Made by a program: the position numbers and the translations under genes. Under the pieces are notes generated by a model. The model ran no database searches. It was not told the DNA's origin and was given only the letters and a program-made list of their open reading frames with translations. A stretch of DNA of 64,000 bases from the IMG/VR virus record IMGVR_UViG_3300042508_000428; one strand, 5' to 3'. Shown here one piece after another: positions 9,629-27,528 of the stretch. Every line of letters starts with the position of its first letter. Positions within the stretch are counted from its first letter, which is position 1. This DNA comes from a virus.

Positions 9629-9976
9629 ATGCTACAACTAATTTATTTTATTCTCGTTTCTTACGGTTTAACCCAAATACTTTGTTATGGTAGTATATTA
9701 AATCCAATAAGACCAACAAAAGGTAAACTTGGAGAACTATTCAAGTGTCCTATGTGTATGGGATTTTGGGTAGGAATGTTCCTATGTGGCATTTCGCCAT
9801 ATACAGAACTATTTAGTTTTGGACAGACATTTATTAATTTTATCCTGTTGGGGTGCTTAAGTTCAGGAACAAGCTACATACTGAACATGGGAGTAAGCGA
9901 TGACGGCTTTAATTTTAAAATCAAATCAGGGAGTCAACCTCTGGACAAACAAGTGGATGAAAAGACCACCAACTAA
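9629..9976 (+). CDS. Membrane protein with CPMCMGFW motif (DUF1360-like)
   Basis: Hydrophobic segments plus CPxCxxxW motif; GAGG SD before ATG 9629. Confidence 0.6.
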   Translation: MLQLIYFILVSYGLTQILCYGSILNPIRPTKGKLGELFKCPMCMGFWVGMFLCGISPYTELFSFGQTFINFILLGCLSSGTSYILNMGVSDDGFNFKIKSGSQPLDKQVDEKTTN

Positions 9977-12785: not shown

Positions 12786-14594
12786 ATGAGTTCAATGTTA
12801 GAGCAAGCAATTCTAGATGCTAAAGAATTAAAAGAAGCAGCAATTAAAAACGCCCAACAGTCCATTATCGAGAAATACTCTAATGAATTTGAAGGTGAGA
12901 TAGAAAAACTACTAGAACAAGCCGCTGCTCCAGCTGATCCCGCTGCGGCTGCTCCCGCTGCTGATCCAATGGCCGGTCTTGGTGCTGCTCCTGCGGCTGC
13001 TCCTATGCCCGGTATGACCATGCCAGGATCTGCTCCTGTTGATCCAGAAAAAGCAAAGTCAGACTCAGATAATAAATCTTCAATGTTTGATAAACTAAAT
13101 TATGCTTTTAAAGACGGAGAAGTAATTGAAGATAAAATTTTCCCAACAGGACTTGTTGAGGTAGATTTAGATTCTTTGTCAGAATTTAGTTTTGAAGATA
13201 ATAAAAAAACACCAGAACAAATGGCGTTACAAGAACTTAAAAACCTTTCTCTTAGAGAGCAGATTGAAGAAGAAATGAATGATGACGATGATTATGATTT
13301 CGATTCAGATTCTTTTCCATATGAAGACTCAGAAGAAGAAGATGATGAGAATGAAGAAGAATCAGAAGAAGACGAAGAACTAGACGACGAAGAATTCGAA
13401 GATGAAGACGAATTAGAAATGGACGATGAAGATTTTGAAGATAAAGATATGGAATCCGATTCGGATGAATTAGCAGATTTACAAGATTATAATGATGAAG
13501 GTAGTGTTGACCTAGAAGACGAAGAATCCGATATGGACATTGATATTGAAGACGAAGAGTTTACAGACGACGAAGATATGGAAGATGAAGATCTTTATGG
13601 CACAGAAGACGATGTAGGATTCCACGTTGATTACGATACAGACGAAGAGGATGAAGAATCCGAAGAAGACTATAATCCAGACGCTGACGTAGAAGATTTT
13701 GAAGATGAAGAGTCAGAAGAAGATGTAGACGAAGAAGAAGAGGACTCCGAGGAAGACGAAGAGGACGAAGAATATTATTATGACGACGAAGAGGAAGATT
13801 CTGAGGAAGACGAAGAAGATTCCGAAGAGGACGATGAGGAAGAATCAGAGGACGAGGAAGAAGATTTAGATGAAGCAAGAGATTTAACAGATAAAGAAAA
13901 GTCTAAACTTGACGATATTATTTCAAGATTAGAGAGAGCCTCTAAGTCTATCGAAAAAGGTAGTGCAAAGAATATGGTTGATGCTTCTGCTCGTCAACTA
14001 AAAGATCTACTAGATTCTCTTAAGGGTTCGGATAAAGAAGAACTACAAGAAGCTATTAAACTTGATTGGAAGAGATCTGGTCAAAGATCTCCATTCACCG
14101 GTATGTTTAAAGAAGAGGCAGAGCATGATTACATGCTAGAGCAAGTTCAAGCACAAATTGAAGCATTAGAACAAGAAGTCGAAGAACTTCAAGAATCTAA
14201 TAAAAAACTAAAAAGTGGTTTAAAAGAGTCAATTAATCTTGTTGAAAATTTAACTGATAAAGTTAAAAAATATGAACAAAAATTGCACGAATCAAGATTA
14301 TTGAATTATAAGCTACTATATACTAATAAGGCGCTATCAGATAGTTCCCTAAATGGACAGCAAAAAAATAAAATTGCTGAATCTATTGACGGTGCCAAGA
14401 CAGCTGAAGAAGTAAAATTGCTTTATGAAACATTAAAAAGCACAATGCGGGATGGAACCAGTAGAAGTACACCCAAATCATTGAGCGAGGCAGTTGAAAG
14501 ACGTTCTTCTTCACTTTTGCTAAGAGGCTCTCGTGCGGAGCCTAAGAAGCAAGATGATTTTGCTGAACGTATGAAACGGTTAGCAGGTTTATAA
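12786..14594 (+). CDS. Prohead core scaffolding protein (T4 gp22-like) with very long Asp/Glu tract
   Basis: Immediately upstream of MCP; coiled-coil C-terminus (QKNKIAESIDGAKTAEEVKLLYETL, RMKRLAGL); many LxE sites. Confidence 0.8.
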   Translation: MSSMLEQAILDAKELKEAAIKNAQQSIIEKYSNEFEGEIEKLLEQAAAPADPAAAAPAADPMAGLGAAPAAAPMPGMTMPGSAPVDPEKAKSDSDNKSSMFDKLNYAFKDGEVIEDKIFPTGLVEVDLDSLSEFSFEDNKKTPEQMALQELKNLSLREQIEEEMNDDDDYDFDSDSFPYEDSEEEDDENEEESEEDEELDDEEFEDEDELEMDDEDFEDKDMESDSDELADLQDYNDEGSVDLEDEESDMDIDIEDEEFTDDEDMEDEDLYGTEDDVGFHVDYDTDEEDEESEEDYNPDADVEDFEDEESEEDVDEEEEDSEEDEEDEEYYYDDEEEDSEEDEEDSEEDDEEESEDEEEDLDEARDLTDKEKSKLDDIISRLERASKSIEKGSAKNMVDASARQLKDLLDSLKGSDKEELQEAIKLDWKRSGQRSPFTGMFKEEAEHDYMLEQVQAQIEALEQEVEELQESNKKLKSGLKESINLVENLTDKVKKYEQKLHESRLLNYKLLYTNKALSDSSLNGQQKNKIAESIDGAKTAEEVKLLYETLKSTMRDGTSRSTPKSLSEAVERRSSSLLLRGSRAEPKKQDDFAERMKRLAGL

Positions 14595-14625: not shown

Positions 14626-16455
14626 ATGGCAAGTATAGTCGAAAGATTAACAGAAAATATTGTTGAAAGAAATCTCCTTCGTGAAGGCGCTGCCCTCTCA
14701 AAGAAATGGGAAAGAACAGGTCTTCTAGAAGGAATCGATAGTGAGATGACAAAGACAACCATGTCTCGTCTTCTCGAAAATCAAGCAAAGGAACTACTCC
14801 GCGAAGCTTCCACAATGTCCGCAGGTGACGTTGAAGGTTTCGCAGCAGTTGCATTCCCAATTGTTAGACGCGTATTCGGTGGTCTAATTGCAAATGAACT
14901 CGTTGCAGTTCAACCAATGAGCCTCCCAAGCGGTCTAATCTTCTTCCTTGATTTTACCTATAGCAATGACACAGGAAACAAAACATTCGCTGGTGCAGTC
15001 GGTGGCCAATCTATTTACGGCGGTAACGTTGTAGCTAGCCAAATCACTGGTGGTGTTAGCTTAACTGGTGTTGATGCAAGTGGCGTACAAAACCTAGAAA
15101 AGAGCTTCTACTCTTTAAATAACGGTTTCTCAAGCGTAACTGGCTCAAGAGTGCTTAATCATTCTTGGAATTATGGCAACGCTGGTAAGGCTGGTGCATC
15201 TTCTACGGTTGTTGTTTACCAAACTTCCAGCTGGACAGACGTTGGTCTATCAACTGCTACAGGTAGTTCATTAACTGGCTCAACAGATGCAGCGTTCGTC
15301 GCATACGATCCAGATGTTCTTGCAGACACTTCTGCTTTAACATACCAAAAATTAAGACTATTCTTTGATTTGGGAACTTGGAATCAACTAGATAGAAATA
15401 ATCTAGTAGCAATCAACATTACTGGTTCAACAATTTCTGGTTCATTGGTTAGAAGACTAACTAAATTGGGTCCAGTAAGCCAATCTTTAGATGTAGTTGT
15501 TAAAACAGATGCTGGTGCTCCAATTTCAGAAGTTGGTGTTGCCCCATCTATTGCATCAACAACTTTTGCAATTAGGGATACATTAACAACTGGTAATTCT
15601 ATAGGTTCTGTTCTTACCGATCTATATGGTCTAGAAGGCGCTGGATCTGGTTCAACATTGAATGGTCAGGATATTCCTGGGGCTAACTTTACAATTCCAG
15701 AGATTGACATCAAAGTTGATAGCATCGCTGTAACAGCTCAAACCAAGAAACTCAAGGCCAAGTGGTCACCAGAATTAGGTCAAGACCTAAATGCTTACCA
15801 TAATCTTGACGCCGAAGTTGAGTTAACAAGCATCCTCTCCGAGCACGTTGCTCTTGAAATCGATCAAGAAATCCTCAACGATCTCGTTAAGGGTGCAACA
15901 GCTGGTACTAAGTACTGGAGCCGTAGACCAGGTAAGTTTGTCAACCGTGACACAGGTGCAAGCATCACATCAGTTGGTGCCCCACCAGACTTCACAGGTA
16001 ATGTCAGCATGTGGTATGAAACACTCATTGAAACAATCAATGACGTTTCTGCTCAAATCCACAGAAAGACAAGACGTGGTGGTGCAAACTTCCTCGTAAC
16101 TTCACCAGAAGTTGCTAACCTCCTAGAGTTCACCTCTGGTTTCCGCGCTGATGTCAGCATGGAAGACCTAAAGGGCGGTTCAGTTGGCGCAGTCAAGGCT
16201 GGTAGCCTCAGCAAGAAGTTTGATCTTTATGTTGATCCATATTTCCCACGCAACCTAATCCTAGTTGGTCGTAGAGGCAAGGCATTCCTCGAAAGCGGTT
16301 ATGTCTACGCTCCATACGTCCCACTAATGATTACACCAACAATCTTCGGTACAGAAGACTTTGTACCAAGAAAGGGTCTAATGACTCGCTACGCCAAGAA
16401 GATGGTTCGTCCAGACATGTATGGCCTAGTAGTTTGCCAAGACCTAATTGGTTAA
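14626..16455 (+). CDS. Major capsid protein (T4 gp23-like) with central insertion
   Basis: VQPMSLPSGLIFFLD, KLKAKWSPELGQDL.AYH, ESGYVYAPYVPL, DFVPRKGLMTRYA motifs. Confidence 0.97.
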   Translation: MASIVERLTENIVERNLLREGAALSKKWERTGLLEGIDSEMTKTTMSRLLENQAKELLREASTMSAGDVEGFAAVAFPIVRRVFGGLIANELVAVQPMSLPSGLIFFLDFTYSNDTGNKTFAGAVGGQSIYGGNVVASQITGGVSLTGVDASGVQNLEKSFYSLNNGFSSVTGSRVLNHSWNYGNAGKAGASSTVVVYQTSSWTDVGLSTATGSSLTGSTDAAFVAYDPDVLADTSALTYQKLRLFFDLGTWNQLDRNNLVAINITGSTISGSLVRRLTKLGPVSQSLDVVVKTDAGAPISEVGVAPSIASTTFAIRDTLTTGNSIGSVLTDLYGLEGAGSGSTLNGQDIPGANFTIPEIDIKVDSIAVTAQTKKLKAKWSPELGQDLNAYHNLDAEVELTSILSEHVALEIDQEILNDLVKGATAGTKYWSRRPGKFVNRDTGASITSVGAPPDFTGNVSMWYETLIETINDVSAQIHRKTRRGGANFLVTSPEVANLLEFTSGFRADVSMEDLKGGSVGAVKAGSLSKKFDLYVDPYFPRNLILVGRRGKAFLESGYVYAPYVPLMITPTIFGTEDFVPRKGLMTRYAKKMVRPDMYGLVVCQDLIG

Positions 16456-16478
16456 TCAACTAAGGGTTAATTAAGCAG

Positions 16479-16516
16479 AACCCCTGTCAGGGAAACTTGA
16501 CAGGGGTTTTGTGTTT
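16479..16516 (+). terminator. Intrinsic terminator after MCP
   Basis: AACCCCTGTCA / TGACAGGGGTT stem followed by T-rich tract. Confidence 0.85.
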
Positions 16517-16532
16517 CTGATAAACTATTTAT
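16497..16532 (+). promoter_or_regulatory. Overlapping possible sigma70 promoter (TTGACA-18-TAAACT) and late motif ACTATTTAT before the envelope cassette
   Basis: TTGACA 16497-16502, TAAACT 16521-16526, ACTATTTAT 16524-16532, AGGAG then ATG 16547. Confidence 0.55.
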
Positions 16533-16546
16533 CAAAAGGAGAAACT

Positions 16547-18418
16547 ATGAAAAAACTTTTATTATCTTTATTATTGTTGACTGCATGTGGCGACGATTTA
16601 GGTTGGGAACACAAAGAAACAAAACACGATTGTGCTGATGCAGTTGTTGGAGACAGCGGTGTTTGTAATTTATGTCAAGACGTAACGGAGACAAAAGATG
16701 AGCAATCTGGAACAGAAGAAGTTGTTAGCGATGTTGCTGACAGTACCCAAAGTGACGTTCTCGCTGACAGTGGGAGCGATGACGCTGACGTTTCTGTCCC
16801 TGATGGCGTTACAGGAACGGACACAGAAGATACGCAAGATGCACAAGATGTACCAGAAGATGTAACTCAGGACGTTGCTCCACCACCAGAATGTGTTACG
16901 GCGACCGATTGTGTCGTTATAGCTTTGCCTTGTGTGGCACCAGATTGCCAAGAAGGTAAGTGTGTTAAAGTTCCATTTGATACACCATGTTCCGATAATA
17001 ATGAATGTACGGCAGGCGATCAATGCCAACTTGGTGTATGTGTTGCTGGTATTCAAATTAATTGTGACGATCTAGAATCTTGCACATTAGATTCTTGCGA
17101 GGCAGATAAAGGTTGCGTACATTTGCCAGTTGATGCAACTTGTGTCGATGGAGATGGTTGCACCGCAGAAGATATTTGCAAAGATGGTAAATGTGTAGGC
17201 GGTAAACCATTTAATTGCGATGATGGAAATGTTTGCACAGATGATACTTGCGAGACATTTGGTAAGGATGAAATTCATGTTTGTAATCATTTGCCAAATC
17301 AAGCGACTTGTACAGACAACGATGTTTGCACATTAGATGATGCCTGTGAGGGTGTTGTTTGCAAATCAAAAGCAGTTGCTATTTGTGATGATAATAATGT
17401 TTGTACAGACAATACTTGCGATCCAGCAAATGGTTGTGTTTATTTAGCAAATGTAGCAACTTGTACCGACAATGACGCTTGTACTGTGAATGATTTATGC
17501 TCCGAAACTGTTTGTAAATCTGGATTAGTATTAAGTTGTGCAGATAATAATGAATGTACAACTGATCTATGCAAGTCAGAATCAGGTTGTTATTTTGAGA
17601 ATAACACAAATGTTTGTAGCGATAATAATGTTTGTAGCATTGACGATAAGTGTGAGGCAGGATCATGTATTGCTGGCGCTCAAAAGGTTTGTGATGACGC
17701 TAATCTTTGCACCGTTGATTCATGTGATGCTGTAAATGGATGTGCTTCCGTAAATGCTGTTGATGGTACAAAATGTGCTGAAGGCGTCTGTAAAGACGGC
17801 TCTTGTGCTTGTGTAAGCGGGTTTGGCTGTGCTTTGCCTGCCTTCGTATATACTGGCGATGTGACTGCTGGTATGTTAGGAGGAATGGGTGGTGGTGTCG
17901 GTCCAAAGATGGGTTGCCCTGCTACTGATGTTTTAATCGGTTTAGGTTTTGATTTCAGTAATGGTCAAAAAACAGCCACTAGAACAACTGCCGTTTGTGG
18001 TAAAGTTACAATTGAACAAAATGGAACTGTCATAACAACTCAAACAACTACACAAAAATCAGGTGGTTCTGGATGTTTTGGTTGGGATCCTTCAACTCCA
18101 ACTCCGCTTGTAGTTTGCAAGAGTGGTTGGGCTGTTGTTGGTATTAAAGGCAAAAAACCCGGAGGCACTCTATTCAATTCTGTAAAAGTTGTTTGTGGTA
18201 AACTCGATGTTGCTGGCAAACCAACTGGCGAGACAGAAGTTTTAAATGTAGAAGGAACACTAGGCTCAGGTGTTGATCAAGAAGTATTATGCCCAGAAAA
18301 AACAATTGCTCGTTATTTTGAGACAAGAGCTGGTTGTGGGCAAGATGCTTTGACTATGTATTGTGCTACTGCAACACCAGATTGTACTGGTCAAGAATTA
18401 ATTTGTAAGGATTTATAA
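16547..18418 (+). CDS. Cys-rich repeat lipoprotein with C-terminal jacalin-like (beta-prism lectin-like) domain
   Basis: Start re-assigned to 16547; signal MKKLLLSLLLLTAC (lipobox), acidic linker, ten C-x-D-x-x-x-C-T repeats, three-fold C-P...G...C pattern at the C-terminus. Confidence 0.7.
   Translation: MKKLLLSLLLLTACGDDLGWEHKETKHDCADAVVGDSGVCNLCQDVTETKDEQSGTEEVVSDVADSTQSDVLADSGSDDADVSVPDGVTGTDTEDTQDAQDVPEDVTQDVAPPPECVTATDCVVIALPCVAPDCQEGKCVKVPFDTPCSDNNECTAGDQCQLGVCVAGIQINCDDLESCTLDSCEADKGCVHLPVDATCVDGDGCTAEDICKDGKCVGGKPFNCDDGNVCTDDTCETFGKDEIHVCNHLPNQATCTDNDVCTLDDACEGVVCKSKAVAICDDNNVCTDNTCDPANGCVYLANVATCTDNDACTVNDLCSETVCKSGLVLSCADNNECTTDLCKSESGCYFENNTNVCSDNNVCSIDDKCEAGSCIAGAQKVCDDANLCTVDSCDAVNGCASVNAVDGTKCAEGVCKDGSCACVSGFGCALPAFVYTGDVTAGMLGGMGGGVGPKMGCPATDVLIGLGFDFSNGQKTATRTTAVCGKVTIEQNGTVITTQTTTQKSGGSGCFGWDPSTPTPLVVCKSGWAVVGIKGKKPGGTLFNSVKVVCGKLDVAGKPTGETEVLNVEGTLGSGVDQEVLCPEKTIARYFETRAGCGQDALTMYCATATPDCTGQELICKDL
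16988..17743 (+). repeat. Ten tandem ~25-aa Cys-rich repeats
   Basis: SDNNECT, DDLESCT, VDGDGCT, DDGNVCT, TDNDVCT, DDNNVCT, TDNDACT, ADNNECT, SDNNVCS, DDANLCT. Confidence 0.9.
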
Positions 18419-18420
18419 CA

Positions 18421-19371
18421 ATGAAAAAACTGCTCTTAACTCTCTTTTTATTACTATTATCAAATACTGCCAATGCTTGGGAAGCAACAGTTGGGCTTGG
18501 TGGCTATGGTAGGATTTTTGACGAAAAGGATCAGTTAGGAGCAGTTTCAAAACATGAAAGTTTAATTCCAGAATTTTCAGGTGGGTTGGCATTGAATGGA
18601 TCATTTCTGTTTGATGCCAGCCCTTCTTTTAGAATTGGTCCAGATTTAATGCTTGGATACGGCTGGTTGTCTGCCCAAGTAAATGAAAGGTTTGGAACAA
18701 GTTTGCAAAATCAAACTATTATTACCTCTCTAAATGTTCAGTATCAAATTTATGATTTTAGAGTTTCTGTAAAGCCCGGCTTTGTTGTCAATACTCTAAC
18801 CGCTGGATACACAGATAAAATTGACTCTGACACAGGTTTCTCTTCGTCCTTAAGATTTTCAACGGATCTATTTTCATCAGCAAGATTTTTTTTTGAGCCA
18901 CAGGTTTTATTCTCTCCCTCTGTAGAATCAAAGAATTCTTTTGTTCCATCGTATAGTTTAACTTTGGGCTTTGAAAAAATCTTTTCGCCAAAGAAGGTTC
19001 CTGCTCCCGTTGTGGAGAAACCAGTAGAAGTAAAGCCAGCAGTGAAAACACCAGAACCAGTTGTTGAACCTATTAAACTTCCAGAACCAGCAACCCCAGT
19101 TAAGCAACCAGATCCACCAGTTAAAGTTGAGGAAACTAAAGTAGAACCTCAATTAAATGTTGAGTCAAAAGGATACTTGGAAAACATATTAAAGGTTCAT
19201 AAAGTATTAAAATCATCCATTAAAATAATTTATAGTGAAGATAAGATTCTTAAAGAAAAGGCAGAAAAATTAGCAACTTGGTTTGCAGAGCGTGGAGTAA
19301 GTAAAGAAGATATTGTTCTAACAAACACGCTTGAAACAAAAGGCATAAGAATAGAAATTCTCAAAAAGTAG
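18421..19371 (+). CDS. Outer-membrane beta-barrel protein with Pro-rich linker and degenerate OmpA-like C-terminal domain
   Basis: Sec signal ending ANA, amphipathic strands, PV-rich linker, KAEKLATWFAERGVSKEDI...IRIEI resembling the OmpA-C RA..V..YL...GV...RI...RRVEI pattern. Confidence 0.6.
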   Translation: MKKLLLTLFLLLLSNTANAWEATVGLGGYGRIFDEKDQLGAVSKHESLIPEFSGGLALNGSFLFDASPSFRIGPDLMLGYGWLSAQVNERFGTSLQNQTIITSLNVQYQIYDFRVSVKPGFVVNTLTAGYTDKIDSDTGFSSSLRFSTDLFSSARFFFEPQVLFSPSVESKNSFVPSYSLTLGFEKIFSPKKVPAPVVEKPVEVKPAVKTPEPVVEPIKLPEPATPVKQPDPPVKVEETKVEPQLNVESKGYLENILKVHKVLKSSIKIIYSEDKILKEKAEKLATWFAERGVSKEDIVLTNTLETKGIRIEILKK

Positions 19372-19377
19372 GATAAT

Positions 19378-21441
19378 ATGTTAAAGAAAATAATACCGCT
19401 TTTATTTTTAGTCTCCTGTTCGCAAGAGACAGCAGCGCCCACTATTCAAGGGGGCATTGGCTTTGACATACAGCAAGACACCACCATCATTGTTAAAGAT
19501 ATAGAACAACCAGATGTTATTGAATCAGACACAGAACCAGTGGAAGATACACAGGTAGAAGACGCGGAAAATGACCTAGAAAATACGGAAATAATAGAAG
19601 TAGAAGAAGATGCGGTCGAAGATGTTGAGCCTCCTGTAGAGGACACAGAAGAGCCTGAATGTATTGATGAAGACGGCGATGGGTTTGGTGAAAACTGCAA
19701 CTTTGGTATTGATTGCGATGACTTCAATCCAAACTTTGGAGATGTATGCCCAGATTGCTCAAAGGCTGGAACTATAGGCTGTACTTGTTCTGGCAAGCCT
19801 TTATCGTGTTATGAATACGATCCAGCGACAGTAGGAAAAGGCTTGTGTAAAAAAGGTCAGCAATTATGTACAGACGGCTTCTGGAAAGCATGTAGCGGGA
19901 GCATTGGACCAGCACCAGAACTCTGCGACTTCAAAGACAACGACTGCGATGGCGAAACAGACGAGGGCGTAAAATCAACTTGTGGTAATTGTGATCTAAC
20001 TTGTAATCAACAAACTATTGGTTCTGGTGGTAAAGGATGGAATCTAAATAGTGAAAATGCTACAGGGCTTGGTTTGGATCCACAAGGTAATGTAACTCTT
20101 GATTTATCAGCGATCTCGCTCAACTTGAAGTTTATTTGGATCGCAAACTCACCAAATAACACTGTATCCAAAGTTGATTGTAAGACCATTACAGAAGTTG
20201 GTAGATTCCAAGTTTGCTCAGACCCTTCAAGAACTTCTGTTGACCTTGAGGGAAATGTTTGGGTTGCTTGCCGTGGCGATGGTGCCGTAACAAAAATTAT
20301 CGCAGATAAAACAAAATGTGCTGATAAAAACGGCAATGGTATTATTGAAACATCGACAAGCTCACAGCCAATAGGCAATGATGAGTGTATCAAGTTTATT
20401 GTAAACCCCGGCAAAGGATCTTATGCTAGAGGTGCCGCTGTAGATAAAGAAAATCATGTATGGATAGGTTATTGGAACCAAAAAACAATGGTTCGTCTTA
20501 ATGCCAACACTGGCGCAACGATGACGGAAATTCCATTGGGTGTATCGCCCTATGGTTTAGTAATTGACCAAAAGGGAATGATCTGGGCGCAAGGTGAGTT
20601 CAACACGCTGGTCATGATAGACCCTTTGACACAAGTCGTTACAAAGAATAATACCTTACCACAACTAAAGTTCCCTGCTAGTGCTTACGGGCTTAATGTA
20701 GATAAGTATGGTCGTTTGTGGGTTGCTTCGGGCAACAAAGCATCTGTTTATGATCCCAAGACATTACAATGGAAGGTCGTTAACATGAACTGGGGTGGTG
20801 GTCGTGGTGTTGCTACATCAAATGATGGTTATACTTATGTCGCCGTAGATGGTTCAGGCGGGGCAGTAAAAATAAATGGCAATGTTGATCCACCACAAGT
20901 AGAAGGTTTTATCAAGGGAGCAGGAAGCCCTGTCGGTGCTGCTATTGACTATGATGGTTTTGTTTGGGTCGTAAATCAAGGTGGTTCAAGCGCAACAAAG
21001 ATGGATCCAAATACAATGTCTGCGGTAGGAACTGTTTCAGTTGGTTCATCTCCATACACATACTCAGACATGACTGGTTATACTCTAAACTACTTTACTG
21101 CGCCAAAAGGTCAATACAGCACAGTATTCTTTGGAAGTGTATCATCAAACCCAATAACAACTTCCACAATGAAACAAGTGTGGCAGTCAATTTCAGCAGA
21201 AGCGGATCTTCCAGAAGGGACAGCATTGAGGTTTAGATTAAGAGCGGGCAATACAAAAGTAGAACTAGAAAATGCTAAATGGTCTGAGCCTATTGATTTT
21301 CCGCCAGAAGTATTTCCTTATGATCTTACCAAGGCAAATATTATCGGCAACATGCTACAAGTTGAAATACAGTTGACAACAAAAGATAAAAAGGTTGCTC
21401 CAACTCTAAAATCTATAACGGCGAAGTCCAAACTGATTTAA
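19378..21441 (+). CDS. Lipoprotein with D-x-D-G-D-G/DNDCDG metal-binding-type motifs and Vgb/NHL-like beta-propeller
   Basis: Lipobox LVSC, acidic linker, CIDEDGDG...DCDD and ELCDFKDNDCDGETDE, repeats PSRTSVDLEGNVW, ARGAAVD, PYGLVID, PYTYSDMTG. Confidence 0.7.
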   Translation: MLKKIIPLLFLVSCSQETAAPTIQGGIGFDIQQDTTIIVKDIEQPDVIESDTEPVEDTQVEDAENDLENTEIIEVEEDAVEDVEPPVEDTEEPECIDEDGDGFGENCNFGIDCDDFNPNFGDVCPDCSKAGTIGCTCSGKPLSCYEYDPATVGKGLCKKGQQLCTDGFWKACSGSIGPAPELCDFKDNDCDGETDEGVKSTCGNCDLTCNQQTIGSGGKGWNLNSENATGLGLDPQGNVTLDLSAISLNLKFIWIANSPNNTVSKVDCKTITEVGRFQVCSDPSRTSVDLEGNVWVACRGDGAVTKIIADKTKCADKNGNGIIETSTSSQPIGNDECIKFIVNPGKGSYARGAAVDKENHVWIGYWNQKTMVRLNANTGATMTEIPLGVSPYGLVIDQKGMIWAQGEFNTLVMIDPLTQVVTKNNTLPQLKFPASAYGLNVDKYGRLWVASGNKASVYDPKTLQWKVVNMNWGGGRGVATSNDGYTYVAVDGSGGAVKINGNVDPPQVEGFIKGAGSPVGAAIDYDGFVWVVNQGGSSATKMDPNTMSAVGTVSVGSSPYTYSDMTGYTLNYFTAPKGQYSTVFFGSVSSNPITTSTMKQVWQSISAEADLPEGTALRFRLRAGNTKVELENAKWSEPIDFPPEVFPYDLTKANIIGNMLQVEIQLTTKDKKVAPTLKSITAKSKLI

Positions 21442-21444
21442 CAA

Positions 21445-21453
21445 ACTATTTAT
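21445..21453 (+). promoter_or_regulatory. Putative late promoter motif ACTATTTAT
   Basis: Only 4 nt between motif end and ATG 21458, no SD. Confidence 0.55.
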
Positions 21454-21457
21454 AGTA

Positions 21458-21973
21458 ATGTTAGTTATTTTTAAGCTGAGTTTCTGGATCAGCTTATTGT
21501 TCTCTTGTAGACCAGTAGATCCAGTAATAAGCAACAAAATAATTGATTCAGTTGAGTTTCAGGAATCGAGAGGTGTAGCTTCTGTAAGAGATAATGGTTA
21601 TTGTGTTGGGTTAATGCAGATAGATAGAAGATATTCTCCAATACAAAAACCTTATTTAAAAATTCCTTATCTCAATCGAATCATTGGCGTGCGAATGCTT
21701 CGATATTGGCATAAGCAGGCGAGAGGTGATATGAATCATGCTCTTGCGGCCTATAATTGTGGATATGCTGGATTAAATACCACTTGCGGTTCTGGATATG
21801 CCAGCGCCGTTTTAAATAGAAATCTTGTTCGTAAGAGAAAGAATCCCGAAAGTTGTTTTATTATGGGAAATATTATTAATTATTATTTCGACAATAAACA
21901 CTATTTAGTTAAGTGGAGAAATAAATTATGGCATTACCAACAATCACCCCGGCATCAACGACAACAACGGTAA
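21458..21973 (+). CDS. Lytic transglycosylase (SLT family), probably a lipoprotein
   Basis: QES catalytic Glu, GLMQI, ALAAYNCG motifs; N-terminal hydrophobic stretch ending LFSC. Confidence 0.85.
   Translation: MLVIFKLSFWISLLFSCRPVDPVISNKIIDSVEFQESRGVASVRDNGYCVGLMQIDRRYSPIQKPYLKIPYLNRIIGVRMLRYWHKQARGDMNHALAAYNCGYAGLNTTCGSGYASAVLNRNLVRKRKNPESCFIMGNIINYYFDNKHYLVKWRNKLWHYQQSPRHQRQQR
21900..21908 (+). promoter_or_regulatory. Putative late promoter motif ACTATTTAG (neck operon)
   Basis: 28 nt before ATG 21928, GGAG SD. Confidence 0.6.
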
Positions 21974-23178
21974 GATTATCATCTTCCGCAACAGCAACAG
22001 AAGCTTCAACCGCTTCAAACTATCCGTTCAGCATATACACAACAGATCAATACTTCTTGACTGGAGCGGCGGAGCAAGTTGCCTTTGTTTATAAAATGTT
22101 AGGCGGCGATGTATTAGATATTGAATTAAGAAATCAAAATGTATTTTCTGCTTACCAAGCCGCTTGTATGGAATATTCCTACCTTGTAAACATTCATCAA
22201 GCAAAGAACTCTCTACCAAATATGCTTGGTGCAACAACAGGAACTTTTGATCATAAGGGTTCTCTTTTGTCTGGTCCAACCGGCTCAAACGTTGCATTAA
22301 AGTTTCCAAGATTCCAAGCACAACTACCAAGAAATGTTGCCAAAGGTTTTGGAGCCTCTGTTGGGGTTGGCGGTGATGTTCCTGTTTATTCAGCATCAAT
22401 TAATTTAACCTCAAGTGTTCAAGATTATGATTTACAAGCAGCAGCAGACGAAGCATTAACTGCTGCTGGAAAATCAAATTTAGTTGGCAAAAGAGCAGTT
22501 GTAACAAAAGTTTATTATGTAACTCCAAGAGCTATGTGGAGATTCTTTGCTTATTACGGTGGTATTAATGTCATTGGTAATATGACAACCTATGGTATGT
22601 ATACCGATGATTCTACGTTTGAAGTCGTTCCCACTTGGCAGAATAAGCTTCAAGCTATGATGTATGAGGATTCAATCTATACAAGAACTTCTCATCACTC
22701 TTATGAGATTGTGGACAACAAATTAAGACTATATCCAGTGCCAGCAGTTACAGACGTAACAAAGATGTATTTTAGATTTTACATCGTTCCCGACGCTTGG
22801 GAAGCAGGAACTTCAAATGATGGTATTGGTGGCATCAATAACCTAAACACTCTACCTTTCGAGAATATACCCTATACTAACATCAATAGCATAGGAAAGC
22901 AATGGATCAGAAGATATGCATTAGCTTTGTCAAAAGAAATGCTTGGTCAAATTCGTGGTAAGTTTGGAGGAAATGTTCCATCTCCAGGAGTTACAATCAC
23001 TCTTAATGCAACCGCTTTATTAGGTGAAGCCGAGAAAGAAAAGACTGCATTAAGAGATGAATTGGTTAAAGTTCTTGATGAATTAACATATACCAAGATT
23101 ACAGAAACACAAGCCAGCATAGCCAAGAATGCTGCGGAAACAATGAAATACGCACCACTACCAATCTTTGTAGGATAA
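21928..23178 (+). CDS. Neck/head-completion protein (T4 gp13-like)
   Basis: LGGDVLDIEL N-terminal motif, WIRRYALALSKEMLGQIRGKF and LNATALL..AEKEK C-terminal motifs; position. Confidence 0.75.
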   Translation: MALPTITPASTTTTVRLSSSATATEASTASNYPFSIYTTDQYFLTGAAEQVAFVYKMLGGDVLDIELRNQNVFSAYQAACMEYSYLVNIHQAKNSLPNMLGATTGTFDHKGSLLSGPTGSNVALKFPRFQAQLPRNVAKGFGASVGVGGDVPVYSASINLTSSVQDYDLQAAADEALTAAGKSNLVGKRAVVTKVYYVTPRAMWRFFAYYGGINVIGNMTTYGMYTDDSTFEVVPTWQNKLQAMMYEDSIYTRTSHHSYEIVDNKLRLYPVPAVTDVTKMYFRFYIVPDAWEAGTSNDGIGGINNLNTLPFENIPYTNINSIGKQWIRRYALALSKEMLGQIRGKFGGNVPSPGVTITLNATALLGEAEKEKTALRDELVKVLDELTYTKITETQASIAKNAAETMKYAPLPIFVG

Positions 23179-24588: not shown

Positions 24589-27528
24589 ATGGCAGTAAAA
24601 GCTTTCAAGTTTGCATCCCCAGGCATCTTTTTAAATGAAATAGATCAATCACAAGTTGCAGAATCTCCTGCATCAGTTGGACCAATCATCATTGGTAGAG
24701 CAGAAAGAGGGCCAGCAATGCGTCCTGTTACAGTTGCTTCTTACGATGAGTTTGTACAAACGTTTGGTGAACCGGTTGCTGGTGGAGATTCTTCTGGAGA
24801 TGTTTGGAGAAGTGGTATTCCTTCTGGTCCAACATATGGTGGTTATGCTGCTCAAGCTTGGTTGGCAAACAACCCAACAGTTACATTCGTAAGATTATTA
24901 GGAACACAAGCTGATAATCCAGAATCTACAAGTTTAAATAATCAAGGGAAAGCAGGATGGACAGTTGGAAGCCCAACGCCTTCTGCCCCTAAAGGTGCTT
25001 ATGGATTATTTGTTTTTCCTTCATCATCTGAATCTTCTGTTATAATGGCTGGTTGTTTAGCTGCTGTTTGGTATTGCTCTGGTACTGTTCCAGTGCTCTC
25101 TGGTACTTTGTATGGTACGTCATCTCCAAAACAAAATAATGGTATTATGATTAATAGTACTAGTGGTCTTTTTTCTGTATATATGAGTGGAACTTCTGGT
25201 CAAGGAGTTGATACAAATACTGTTAAGTATTTCGATTTTAGCCCAACAAGTGATAAATTTGTTAGAAAAGTGTTTAACACAAATCCACAAAATGCAAATA
25301 CAGATTCTACCTCTGGTCCTTCAAATACAAGTACTTCTTTTTATGGATATTGGTTAGGAGAAACTTTTGAAAATGAATTACCATTTATGGTTATATCGGG
25401 GTCTTCTTCTTATCCGCTAAACGGGGTTAATGGCGTATTAACAAATTCTGTTGGTATAATTTTACCAATTAAATTTGAAAATAGATTAGACAAACAAGCA
25501 AATGAAAGCAATGCAGCTAGAACAGGCTGGATCATTGGTCAGGGATCTTCTGGAGTTGTAGCTGACTTTTCAGCCAAAAATCAGAAGAAATTATTTAGAT
25601 TTATTTCTCTTGATTATGGTGATTGGACAAGAAACAATTTAAAAGTAACAATCAATAATATTATTGCTCCACAAAATGATGCGCAAAAATATGGAACATT
25701 TGATGTTGAAGTTCGAAGAGTGTATGACACTGATGCAAATAAAATTATTGTAGAAAGTTTTGTCGGTTGTACACTAGATCCTGATTCTCCTAGTTATATC
25801 GCAAGAAAAATTGGAGATACATATTACAGTTGGGATGAATCTAATAGAATATTATCTGAAGTTGGGGAGAATCCAAACAATTCTCAATTTATCAGAGTCG
25901 AAATGGCTCCTGACTATGTATCAAATGCAGGAGATATTCCGTTCGGCGTATTAGGTCCGCTAAAATATGACATTGCTACTTTCGCTTCTCAGGCGAACGT
26001 TACAAATGGTGTTGGATTTGTTTACGGAACTTCAAGTTGTTTCGCACAAACTTCATCAGTCAATTTAACTGCCAGTGGTGGTCCATCAGATCAAGCATTT
26101 AGATTTAATTTTCCATCATTAAGAACAAGAGTGTCTTCATCAGAAGATTCTTTAACAACTTACAAATTAGCTGATTGGGGAGCTGCCACCACAAGAGCTG
26201 CTTCTTCTATTCTTTATAATGAAGGCGTTAATGATATTTTAAGATTACCATTGACTGGGTCTGGATTTTATACTGGTATGGAAGGTGGTGGCTTATCTTA
26301 TGCTTGGGCATTTAGCTTAGACGATGTTCGCGTAACCGGTTCACAGCTTACAGGAAGCACTTGGCAAAATAAATATTTTATTTGGACTGCTGGGTCAAAA
26401 ACAAATTCTGGTATAAATGGTTCTTATACTGCTGTTAGTGGTACATTTGCACAACTTTTAAACACCGAAGGTGTAAATTCTTTCACAACCACTTTCCAAG
26501 GTGGTACTGATGGATTTAACGTTATGGAAGGTGAGCCACTAAGAAATTCTGCAATGACAGTCGGATCTTCAACAGATCAAAACAGCTATATCTACAATAC
26601 ATACAGAAGAGCAATTGATACGGTAAGAGATCCAGAATTTGTTCAAGGCAATCTCTTTACCATTCCAGGATTAGCTTATGAGCCATTAACTCTATATGCT
26701 GCACAAATGGCAGAAAGTAGAGCAGATGTAATGGCAATTATTGATGCGTCTGGAGTAGGAGCCAATTTAGCTTCTTATGTAACCAAACAAGAAAAAAGTG
26801 ACAACGCACAAGGAACAGCAACTCCAAGAGTTGCTCCTGTTAGTGATGTTGTTACAAGAATGAAAGCTAGAAATTTAAATACAAGTTATGCTGCAACATA
26901 TTATCCTTGGGTTCAAATTTCTGATTCTGTAACGGGTAAGATTGTTCCAATTCCATCATCAGTTGTTGCTCTCGGCGCAATGTCCTACAATGATAGTGTT
27001 CAAGCCCCTTGGTTTGCTCCAGCAGGATTTAATCGTGGTGGTTTATCAACCGGCAATGCAGGCGTAAACGTTGTTAACATTGTTAAGAAATTAACATCTG
27101 CAGAAAGAGATCAACTCTATCCAGTCAACGTTAATCCAATCGCATCATTCCCAAATGAAGGAATTGTAATCTTTGGACAGAAGACACTACAGGCAACTCC
27201 ATCTGCTCTGGACAGAATTAATGTTCGTAGATTAATGCTCTACATCAAGAGAGGAATTAACATAATCTCAACAAGAGTTCTATTTGAACCAAATGTTCAA
27301 GATACTTGGAACAACTTTAAAGATCAAGCAGAACCATTCCTTGCAGATGTAAAAGCAAGATTCGGTTTGACGGATTATAGATTAATTCTAGATGAGACAA
27401 CAACAACTCCAGATTTAATCGATCAAAATATCTTGTATGCAAAGATTTTCTTGAAACCAACAAAAGCAATCGAATTCATTGCAGTTGACTTCTTTATTAC
27501 AAAATCAGGAGCTTCATTCAATATTTAA
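24589..27528 (+). CDS. Tail sheath protein (T4 gp18-like)
   Basis: SPGIFLNEIDQS N-terminus; YYPWV, WFAPAGFNRG, GQKTLQ, LDRINVRRL, FEPN, PTKAIEFI. Confidence 0.97.
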   Translation: MAVKAFKFASPGIFLNEIDQSQVAESPASVGPIIIGRAERGPAMRPVTVASYDEFVQTFGEPVAGGDSSGDVWRSGIPSGPTYGGYAAQAWLANNPTVTFVRLLGTQADNPESTSLNNQGKAGWTVGSPTPSAPKGAYGLFVFPSSSESSVIMAGCLAAVWYCSGTVPVLSGTLYGTSSPKQNNGIMINSTSGLFSVYMSGTSGQGVDTNTVKYFDFSPTSDKFVRKVFNTNPQNANTDSTSGPSNTSTSFYGYWLGETFENELPFMVISGSSSYPLNGVNGVLTNSVGIILPIKFENRLDKQANESNAARTGWIIGQGSSGVVADFSAKNQKKLFRFISLDYGDWTRNNLKVTINNIIAPQNDAQKYGTFDVEVRRVYDTDANKIIVESFVGCTLDPDSPSYIARKIGDTYYSWDESNRILSEVGENPNNSQFIRVEMAPDYVSNAGDIPFGVLGPLKYDIATFASQANVTNGVGFVYGTSSCFAQTSSVNLTASGGPSDQAFRFNFPSLRTRVSSSEDSLTTYKLADWGAATTRAASSILYNEGVNDILRLPLTGSGFYTGMEGGGLSYAWAFSLDDVRVTGSQLTGSTWQNKYFIWTAGSKTNSGINGSYTAVSGTFAQLLNTEGVNSFTTTFQGGTDGFNVMEGEPLRNSAMTVGSSTDQNSYIYNTYRRAIDTVRDPEFVQGNLFTIPGLAYEPLTLYAAQMAESRADVMAIIDASGVGANLASYVTKQEKSDNAQGTATPRVAPVSDVVTRMKARNLNTSYAATYYPWVQISDSVTGKIVPIPSSVVALGAMSYNDSVQAPWFAPAGFNRGGLSTGNAGVNVVNIVKKLTSAERDQLYPVNVNPIASFPNEGIVIFGQKTLQATPSALDRINVRRLMLYIKRGINIISTRVLFEPNVQDTWNNFKDQAEPFLADVKARFGLTDYRLILDETTTTPDLIDQNILYAKIFLKPTKAIEFIAVDFFITKSGASFNI

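Follow-up and report, generated by a model that had tools for sequence, protein, structure and literature searches.

The region between the capsid and neck genes of an uncultured T4-like phage from freshwater carries an insert of about 4.9 kb, whose three genes, g1, g2 and g3, encode predicted envelope proteins by which the surface of the infected cell is probably re-dressed before lysis. The phage is represented by the IMG/VR record IMGVR_UViG_3300042508_000428, and the 64,000 nucleotides analysed here (the window) are a portion of a distant T4-type myovirus genome with a guanine-plus-cytosine (GC) content of about 36%. The genes follow each other on the + strand in the order scaffold-like protein, major capsid protein (MCP), g1, g2, g3, g4, neck protein, two more conserved genes and tail sheath (Table 1). 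Computation gives the gene limits, the export signals, the folds, the insertion junction, the linkage of the genes, their phyletic distribution and the multiple origins of the g3 copies of AT-rich type; late expression, an outer-membrane location, glycan binding and a benefit to the phage are what we infer.

Table 1. Features of the capsid-to-sheath region, with positions in the window and the evidence for each assignment.
Feature	Position	Strand	Evidence
Scaffold-like gene, acidic	12786–14594	+	
Major capsid protein (gp23 type), left backbone flank of the insertion	14626–16455	+	Pfam PF07068, E 2.3e-69; PHROG 138
Intrinsic-terminator-like hairpin 3' of the MCP gene	16475–16512	+	17-pair stem, then T run; contains TTGACA
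Left copy of AAACTATTTAT, left insertion junction, before g1	16522–16532	+	
g1, 623-residue lipoprotein	16547–18418	+	Pfam PF00526, E 4e-19; lipobox rule
g1 head, jacalin-like beta-prism lectin fold (predicted), residues 430–623	17834–18415	+	AlphaFold2, predicted local distance difference test (pLDDT) 94.9, predicted template modelling score (pTM) 0.90
g2, 316-residue Sec-exported protein of OmpA architecture (predicted)	18421–19371	+	AlphaFold2, Foldseek
g3, 687-residue lipoprotein	19378–21441	+	Pfam SGL, E 1.7e-9; Reg_prop; MopE 22.4 bits, below cut-off
Right copy of AAACTATTTAT, right insertion junction, before g4	21443–21453	+	Comparison with L132, L135, L138, L083
g4, exported family-1 lytic transglycosylase, 171 residues	21458–21973	+	Pfam SLT (PF01464), 32.4 bits, cut-off 21.3
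Neck/head-completion-type protein, right backbone flank	21928–23178	+	PHROG 211, head-tail adaptor, E 5.5e-9
Tail sheath	24589–27528	+	

Export signals were sought by a rule-based scan of the N-termini of 64 crude open reading frame (ORF) calls of the window, all on the + strand, with the lipobox defined as [LVI][ASTVI][GAS]C behind a basic n-region and a hydrophobic h-region. Signal-like N-termini were found in 5 of the 64, and four of these five belong to the consecutive genes g1–g4 (16547–21973). The rule finds the lipobox L-T-A-C14 in g1 (MKKLLLSLLLLTAC, followed by GDD) and L-V-S-C14 in g3 (MLKKIIPLLFLVSC, which ends in LLFLVSC and is followed by SQE). The signal of g2 (MKKLLLTLFLLLLSNTANA, followed by WEA) is of the Sec type and ends in SNTANA, with the cleavage site between ANA and WE, while that of g4 (MLVIFKLSFWISLLFSC, followed by RP) ends in SLLFSC and has a lipobox-like site with an invariant Cys17 and, depending on the relative, S, T or V at position −1. 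A first-pass annotation of this DNA had proposed export signals on these four genes and had listed their products as a Cys-repeat lipoprotein, an outer-membrane barrel or OmpA-like protein, a propeller lipoprotein and a lytic transglycosylase, a list that Pfam, AlphaFold2 and Foldseek bear out. It had also regarded them as exported envelope proteins and not as ordinary virion proteins, which agrees with the lack of any PHROGs structural family for g1–g3; PADLOC has no family for any of g1, g2, g3 and g4.

The extent of the insert can be read from the closer relatives of the phage, which came from scans with g4 as query. In L132–L136 the order is capsid, hairpin, AAACTA(T/C)TTAT, g4 and neck, with g1–g3 absent, and in L138 and L139 the slot between capsid and g4 holds a single ORF of 117 residues. 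The 11-mer AAACTATTTAT is present twice in the window, before g1 and before g4, and once in the relatives; therefore, the insert comprises g1–g3 and is bounded by a direct repeat. The flanking backbone is well conserved, with 70–80% identity of the MCP to those of L132, L135 and L138, and 88–89% identity of the neck protein in L132–L139 (46–56% in 70+ further relatives). The gene g4 is a vertically inherited, resident backbone gene, since it is present in relatives without g1–g3, has its own motif and overlaps the neck gene, and since its copy in the window is no outlier among the 60–70% identities found between all these phages. For the latter reason its arrival with the insert was rejected, and the idea of the first-pass annotation that all four genes form one inserted cassette does not hold. 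The overlap with the neck gene is 46 nucleotides long and is kept in every relative that carries the latter. The E-S, GLMQ and AYNCG motifs of family-1 lytic transglycosylases are invariant, together with Cys17, in g4 and 8 relatives, and every relative's g4 retains a short hydrophobic N-terminus.

The block begins behind the MCP terminator, as had been claimed: the hairpin has a stem of 17 bp. The same claim included a promoter of its own for the block, TTGACA-18-TAAACT, which was considered and rejected. It is probably no promoter, because it is located in the 3' arm of the hairpin and because an identical hairpin in L135 is directly followed by the motif and g4. In contrast, the second proposed element is real and recurrent. 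The ACTATTTAT motif family (nonamer ACTA(T/A)TTAT) has 11 matches in the window against 2.5 expected, all on the + strand, and none of 100 shuffles reaches 11. Within the structural module its copies stand before the scaffold, sheath, g1 (16524) and g4 (21445) genes, and, judging by position only, we read the ACTATTTAT/AAACTATTTAT motif as a late-gene promoter-type element of this phage. As a side observation, the motif before g4 (21445–21460 in the window, and in relatives L132–L140) stops 4–7 nucleotides ahead of the ATG with no evident Shine-Dalgarno sequence, and a leaderless mRNA or read-through transcripts may serve for the translation of g4.

The MCP-to-neck slot differs among related phages, so that the expectation of a variable locus is confirmed by a comparison of 70 loci. 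In these 70 more distant relatives, with capsids 53–61% identical, the gap from capsid to neck is 93–140 bp in 38 and 0.3–2.2 kb in the rest, where it is filled by unrelated small ORFs; none of the 70 has any of g1–g4 in the slot. On this comparison the slot is a hot spot. In L080 (3269–4213) it contains a 314-residue lipoprotein (lipobox LVLSC) with a weak VWA match (E 3e-4, below cut-off), which would be a second, unrelated exported protein of adhesion type at the same place. The arrangement resembles the PeSL cassettes of T4-type phages, which are indels bounded by composite early-promoter/stem-loop motifs (PMC2839356, PMC4122927). In both cases there is a variable slot between core genes, with a short repeated regulatory motif on both sides and a terminator stem-loop on one, and related phages carry the same cargo at differing loci. 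However, the 11-bp repeat is of late-gene type and not an early promoter, the hairpin is present at the left junction only, and recombination is here a deduction from the junctions. We think that this motif-flanked junction offers a clean natural example of cassette movement at a late-gene regulatory motif.

The gene g1 is preceded by a strong Shine-Dalgarno sequence, and the frames of g1–g3 are intact and tightly packed. Its product is formed by the lipobox Cys14, within the sequence CGDDLG that is invariant after the lipidated cysteine in 8 g1 homologues, an acidic linker, Cys-rich Dicty_CTDC repeats with 49 cysteines and a C-terminal head. The C-terminus reads QELICKDL, with no hydrophobic or Arg tail. 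There are 64 cysteines in total, of which 10 are in the head of about 194 residues, probably forming disulfides. In the AlphaFold2 model the head has a beta-prism I fold, and the top 40+ PDB matches in Foldseek are all jacalin-related lectins (E about 1e-5, target-normalised template modelling score 0.55–0.72). It shares with banana lectin, Heltuba, artocarpin and ZG16 the three-fold beta-prism I, the Gly-rich N-terminal loop and the GxxxD loop before the last strand, but it differs from them in its size, in its cysteines and in its fusion to a bacterial Cys-repeat stalk and a lipid anchor. Moreover, residues 430–623 match no Pfam family at E ≤ 0.1, the Jacalin model included. In the GxxxD loop, which we take to be the sugar-binding signature of jacalin-related lectins, G167 is kept in 45 and D171 in all 50 of 50 aligned homologues, and the modelled head may bind sugars.

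A profile-free search of the whole database found the head domain in 120 clusters. Most of these proteins have about 240 residues and 66 of 80 carry a lipobox; some have DUF4215 Cys repeats, among them P0166, with a tail read as MYXO-CTERM-like. The head family occurs in 29 of the 401 Myxococcota genomes sampled; in the order to which the closest relatives of g3 belong, it was not found. Between divergent phage lineages, g1 is 68–80% identical.

The model of g2 has a pLDDT of 78.6 overall, with eight long barrel strands above 90 in residues 20–188. Residues 193–248 form a linker, predicted to be disordered, which is rich in Pro, Val, Glu and Lys and of variable length among homologues, and residues 247–316 a small alpha/beta C-terminal domain. 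The best Foldseek match is full-length E. coli OmpA (E 1.6e-8, over 302 columns), followed by OmpA-TM, Ail, OmpX and OmpW. The likeness to OmpA consists of an 8-strand N-terminal barrel, a Pro-rich hinge and a C-terminal alpha/beta domain, whereas the identity is 14% and the C-terminal domain of g2 has about 70 residues and, in a Pfam scan, no PF00691 match. When its profile was compared by hhalign with PF00691 domains cut from three Myxococcota genomes, the relationship emerged with 92% probability (E 6e-7), with the GHTD...N loop deleted and the conserved Arg changed to Lys. Because of these two changes, peptidoglycan binding by the domain is doubtful.

The 45 homologues of g2 have 207–337 residues, most of them 307–337, and all but one have an amino-acid composition of the AT-rich type. 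A PDB sequence search gave no relative, and the g2 profile has no match in the 401 sampled Myxococcota genomes or in the candidate host order (37 genomes). Neither g2 alone nor P0165, a cluster of g2 homologues 34% identical to it, gave matches in viral scans, and the g2 profile retrieved only two contigs already known. P0165 has a clearly GC-richer composition than the phage copies, and the same is true of P0170, a cluster of g1 homologues with the same start, CGDDLGWE. Both clusters are on contigs of up to 33–36 kb, and from their composition they could be a higher-GC phage or a cellular source of the g1–g2 pair.

The gene neighbourhoods show that the insert is made of two separable units, the obligate pair g1+g2 and the free-standing g3. 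In all 10 loci with the flank present (the window, L130, L131 and L143–L149), g1 is immediately upstream of g2. The pair is followed by g3 in the window, L130/L131 and L143, and in L145–L149 by a membrane/coiled-coil protein of 221 residues instead. In L130/L131 the trio g1–g3 is flanked by primase/SbcCD genes on one side and by a PG_binding_1 endolysin-type gene on the other, with terminase and portal nearby. On the other hand, the phage record G405 (159 kb, 88% complete) has g3 without g2, beside the terminase region, and in L083, whose contig ends just upstream of g3, this gene abuts the neck gene via the same motif with g4 absent. The notion of a single host-derived module of four genes is therefore abandoned, as g4 belongs to the phage backbone, g2 was not found in the 401 + 37 Myxococcota genomes, and g1–g2 and g3 travel separately. 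In L148 (3122–5196; also in L145, L147 and L149), the pair and the 221-residue protein, which has one central transmembrane segment and a Lys-rich coiled-coil tail, are followed by a 161-residue protein starting MKEILTEWRKYLAE and by the PG_binding_1 endolysin-type gene; to judge from its genes, the neighbourhood could be one concerned with lysis.

A comparison of composition with the flanks, which had been suggested as a check, revealed no anomaly at synonymous sites. The GC content at third codon positions (GC3) is 0.21 in g1, 0.24 in g2, 0.32 in g3 and 0.28 in g4, the rest of the window having 0.254 ± 0.067. A recent transfer from a GC-rich donor was rejected for this reason, and the match to the phage background argues for an old acquisition, the genes being long resident in AT-rich phage genomes. 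Taken together with the identity of g1 between phage lineages, it also argues for long retention under selection.

The product of g3 consists of the lipobox Cys14, an acidic linker, a Cys-rich MopE-like region (CDFKDNDCDGETDEG), a beta-propeller of NHL/SGL type and a C-terminal domain. Its matches in a PDB sequence search are the designed Pizza propellers and the PknD propeller domain. Homologues are full-length (up to 100% query coverage, 40–98% identity), with copies 97–98% identical in several metagenome sources, so that the homology with the Myxococcota family of MopE/propeller surface proteins extends over the whole protein. The named homologues are proteins from Myxococcales or 'Deltaproteobacteria' metagenome-assembled genomes (MAGs), and the atlas clusters are 'commonest Myxococcota'. 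At E ≤ 1e-20 the propeller half is found in 107 of the 401 Myxococcota genomes, often in several copies each, with a best identity of 76–77%, and the best-matching genomes all belong to one order of 37 genomes. The homologue in L084 is 73% identical; the locus is cellular, as indicated by its 64% GC and a neighbouring two-component system. Six cellular g3 loci were measured at 61–70% GC. Their neighbours (aldehyde dehydrogenase, DUF4349, two-component systems, M28 peptidase) give no functional clue, none has a g2-like gene next to it, and three of the six have large Dicty_CTDC proteins within a few kb. We also observed that the DNA for the MopE-like CDFKDNDCDGETDEG (19907–20000 in the window) matches dozens of sites per Myxococcota genome, with 73–94% identity over 29–90 nucleotides, despite the gap of 25–30 GC points between phage and cells.

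In the g3 tree the rows of AT-rich type form several clades nested among GC-rich ones, and confirmed phage contigs are at three places: the window with L083, L131, and G405 (= P0082). A tree constrained to hold all AT-rich rows in a single clade is worse by 1633 log-likelihood units (approximately unbiased test, p-AU 4e-55), and a single origin of these phage-type copies is rejected. The test took in all AT-rich rows, since one on the four confirmed phage rows alone is trivially rejected and ignores their near-identical AT-rich kin. Because the family is broad and multi-copy in cells, the simplest reading is that g3 was captured from cells by phages several times, the direction being deduced from this distribution. 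Such apparently repeated capture of one host surface-protein family would mark g3 as important at the phage–host interface, perhaps as a partner of the receptor. P0005, a GC-rich-type homologue of 729 residues, 77% identical, falls within the clade of the window, which is otherwise AT-rich; this may reflect a back-transfer from phage to cell or an effect of linker composition.

From gene ancestry alone, the host would be a member of the Myxococcota, a phylum with, to our knowledge, very few known phages. The link to this phylum drawn by the first-pass annotation stands for g3 and for the g1 head, with its DUF4215/MYXO-CTERM-like relatives, but not for g2, which is unmatched there, nor for g4, a backbone gene. 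When positions 1–40000 of the window were compared by BLAST with five candidate Myxococcota genomes, the only homology was that of g3 and of the MopE motif, and no spacer-like match appeared. With 65% GC and Myxococcota-type proteins, genome G002 (locus L085), recorded as 'uncultured Enterobacteriaceae bacterium', is placed in the same order as the Myxococcota MAGs, and the bin is probably mislabelled. In our opinion, the ancestry of g3 provides a concrete and testable host clue, pointing to one Myxococcota order, for a large clade of uncultured T4-like phages: relatives with this capsid amount to hundreds of contigs in IMG/VR, whereas the closest cultured phages by capsid, Flavobacterium phage immuto and Microcystis phage Mel-JY01, have about 47–49% identity across about 60% of the protein.

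We tentatively favour the view, held at somewhat less than even confidence, that g1–g3 are a late-made, glycan- or ligand-binding display on the outer membrane, which alters the targets to which the infected cell and its debris adhere. It is favoured because the anatomy of the proteins argues for exit from the cytoplasm, late synthesis, location in the outer membrane and ligand binding by the lectin head and the NHL propeller. The region would have three layers: a resident late gene, g4, overlapping the neck gene; the insert g1–g3 at a late-gene motif; and the two functional units within the insert. This insert would probably have arrived by recombination at the motif between the capsid terminator and g4, as in the promoter/terminator-bounded cassettes of T4-type phages. 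Its genes would be transcribed late, together with those of the virion, and the host pathways for Sec export, lipoproteins and barrel assembly would deliver the products to the outer membrane. There, g1 would raise a jacalin-fold lectin head at the tip of a disulfide-rich stalk with an N-terminal lipid anchor, g2 would be its membrane partner, with a barrel of 8 strands and the remnant of an OmpA-like domain in the periplasm, and g3, a copy from a large Myxococcota family, would contribute a propeller lipoprotein able to bind ligands. Both the doomed cell and the membrane debris that lysis leaves would acquire a surface with new binding capacity for glycans or ligands. Most probably, infected cells would then stick to neighbours or particles, or surface receptors would be occupied, so that the progeny are released near fresh hosts or are not wasted.

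Several points weigh against the display on the outer membrane. Late expression, localisation and binding of g1–g3 are predictions from sequence and models; the motif is called a late promoter solely from where its copies lie, the lipoproteins may be turned towards the periplasm instead of the surface, and a lectin fold alone is no proof of sugar binding. The genomes searched contain no cellular relative of g2. The GC content of the phage is far from that of the six cellular loci, and positions 1–40000 gave no CRISPR-like match in the five genomes. Finally, two independent phage contexts have the module immediately ahead of a peptidoglycan hydrolase (SLT here, PG_binding_1 endolysin-type in L131/L148), which fits a role in lysis too.

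Outer-membrane morons are familiar from other phages, such as the Ail/OmpX-type barrel Lom and the lipoprotein Bor of lambda, Llp of T5, and Cor. Like them, g1–g3 are accessory genes among or beside late or lysis genes, whose products are predicted to reach the outer membrane by host export, and the closest folds to that of g2 include small barrels of the Ail/OmpX/OmpA class. However, the present genes are in a virulent T4-type phage and not in a prophage, they are placed behind a late-gene motif, and they have no Pfam match to Lom/Ail or Bor. Their products are large and modular, with a predicted lectin head on a Cys stalk, an OmpA-like C-domain and an NHL propeller; the set also differs in its obligate two-gene pair and its Myxococcota ancestry.

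It is possible, though we consider it unlikely, that g3 and/or g1 mask the phage's own outer-membrane receptor, in the manner of T5 Llp or Cor, thereby blocking later injection and sparing the progeny from debris. This would account for the presence of outer-membrane lipoproteins in a virulent phage and would suit their late timing, as progeny need shielding from debris; a repeatedly captured copy of a host surface-protein family, such as g3, would also be apt as a decoy or as a blocker of a host partner. Nevertheless, known exclusion lipoproteins are small and act one-to-one with a protein receptor, while the present ones have 623 and 687 residues and one of them is lectin-headed. If the receptor were a polysaccharide, stoichiometric masking would be inefficient; moreover, exclusion genes are usually early, and no exclusion family of PADLOC or PHROG was matched.

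The pair g1+g2 also invites comparison with TraA/TraB of Myxococcus xanthus, whose layout it mirrors. We know of no other bacterial outer-membrane fusogen. In that system of outer-membrane exchange, TraA has a lectin-type head, a Cys stalk and a lipid anchor, and TraB a barrel, a linker and an OmpA-type domain (PMC3325183, PMC12045341). A virulent phage of uncultured freshwater Myxococcota might carry its own TraA/TraB-like contact machine, convergent or assembled from shuffled host parts, by which g1 and g2 join infected cells to neighbours and exchange or fuse their outer membranes, the capture of g3 being part of the same take-over of myxobacterial social contact; the chance of this seems to us slim. 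The domain plan is matched, signal peptide and barrel included, as is the gene order, adhesin then barrel, and no locus with the flank present has g1 and g2 apart; in addition, Myxococcota proteins with Cys repeats and a tail read as MYXO-CTERM-like contain relatives of the g1 head. The likeness is, however, architectural only, with no sequence homology to TraA or TraB detected. Where TraA has an N-terminal PA14-like recognition domain, the head of g1 is C-terminal and jacalin-like, with no PA14 match in Pfam; where TraA has a C-terminal MYXO-CTERM sorting tag, g1 is anchored by its N-terminal lipobox, with inverted polarity. As for the TIGR04201 repeats of TraA, an NCBIfam scan of g1 gave no family at E ≤ 0.1 (TIGR04201 being covered only if it is in the library), and Dicty_CTDC was matched instead. 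The linker of g2 is Pro-rich and predicted to be disordered, unlike the calcium-binding TSP3 repeats of TraB, and its counterpart of the OmpA/MotB domain (PF00691) is truncated at the loop bearing the peptidoglycan-binding residues, whereas the OmpA domain of TraB is required for exchange (PMC12045341). Furthermore, TraA recognition is homotypic, yet g1 would be only on infected cells. Were such a machine present, a virus would be using the social contacts of bacteria for its own ends, to gain access to new hosts or for the spread of receptors or lipoproteins. In either case, we think that g1+g2 deserve attention as a phage-specific two-protein device of the outer membrane, a candidate for virus-driven cell adhesion or membrane exchange.

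A part in lysis has an equally small probability in our judgement. The exported proteins would then act with the adjacent peptidoglycan hydrolase to breach the outer membrane, or to time its breach, as an alternative to spanins. The module is 0–2 genes upstream of a muralytic gene in the two contexts mentioned, its genes carry late-type motifs, and no spanin-like pair was seen in the region read. Yet insertion at the motif accounts for the adjacency to g4, a gene that relatives possess in the absence of the module, and L083 has g3 beside the neck gene with no hydrolase between. Spanins combine a small outer-membrane lipoprotein with an inner-membrane partner, or have a C-terminal transmembrane segment; by contrast, g1 and g3 have no such segment, and the lipoproteins and barrel of the insert belong to the outer membrane, with no inner-membrane protein among them. 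Lectin and propeller proteins of 600 residues are also unlike any known lysis factor.

It is very improbable that the genes are neutral passengers, that is, hitch-hiking host DNA with no role in infection, even if they are absent from many close and distant relatives and the slot collects miscellaneous ORFs. The intact, tightly packed frames, the strong Shine-Dalgarno sequence before g1 and the fully ameliorated GC3 speak against it, as do the conservation of g1 across divergent phages, the several origins of the AT-rich g3 copies and the near-identical copies of g3 in several metagenome sources. Least credible of all is a place in the virion, as capsid decoration, fibres or host-recognition parts: although the genes are between those for capsid and neck, behind a structural-gene motif, in a slot where relatives have small ORFs of possible structural type, and although phage fibres and decoration proteins often contain lectin-type and repeat domains, this role is disfavoured because the proteins leave the cytoplasm by their anatomy, with cleavable export signals on all three whereas virions assemble in the cytoplasm, 64 cysteines in g1 that need an oxidising compartment, a transmembrane beta-barrel in the model of g2 and no PHROG structural match, and the closest relatives build virions without g1–g3.

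Some minor observations concern the neighbouring genes. The MCP has 609 residues, and its matches to the Pfam model and to cultured T4-like phages are split in two pieces that cover about 60%, which implies an insertion domain of about 200–250 residues (about residues 105–350); within the uncultured clade this region is shared at full length. The gene in the scaffold position encodes 602 residues, with a hyper-acidic, Asp/Glu-rich stretch of about 250 between conserved ends, and its conservation in relatives is limited to the C-terminal 150–180 residues or so. Outside the block, the sole other ORF with a strongly hydrophobic N-terminus (9629–9976, 115 residues) has a weak DUF1360 match of 24.3 bits, the cut-off being 21, and its product is a candidate small membrane protein.

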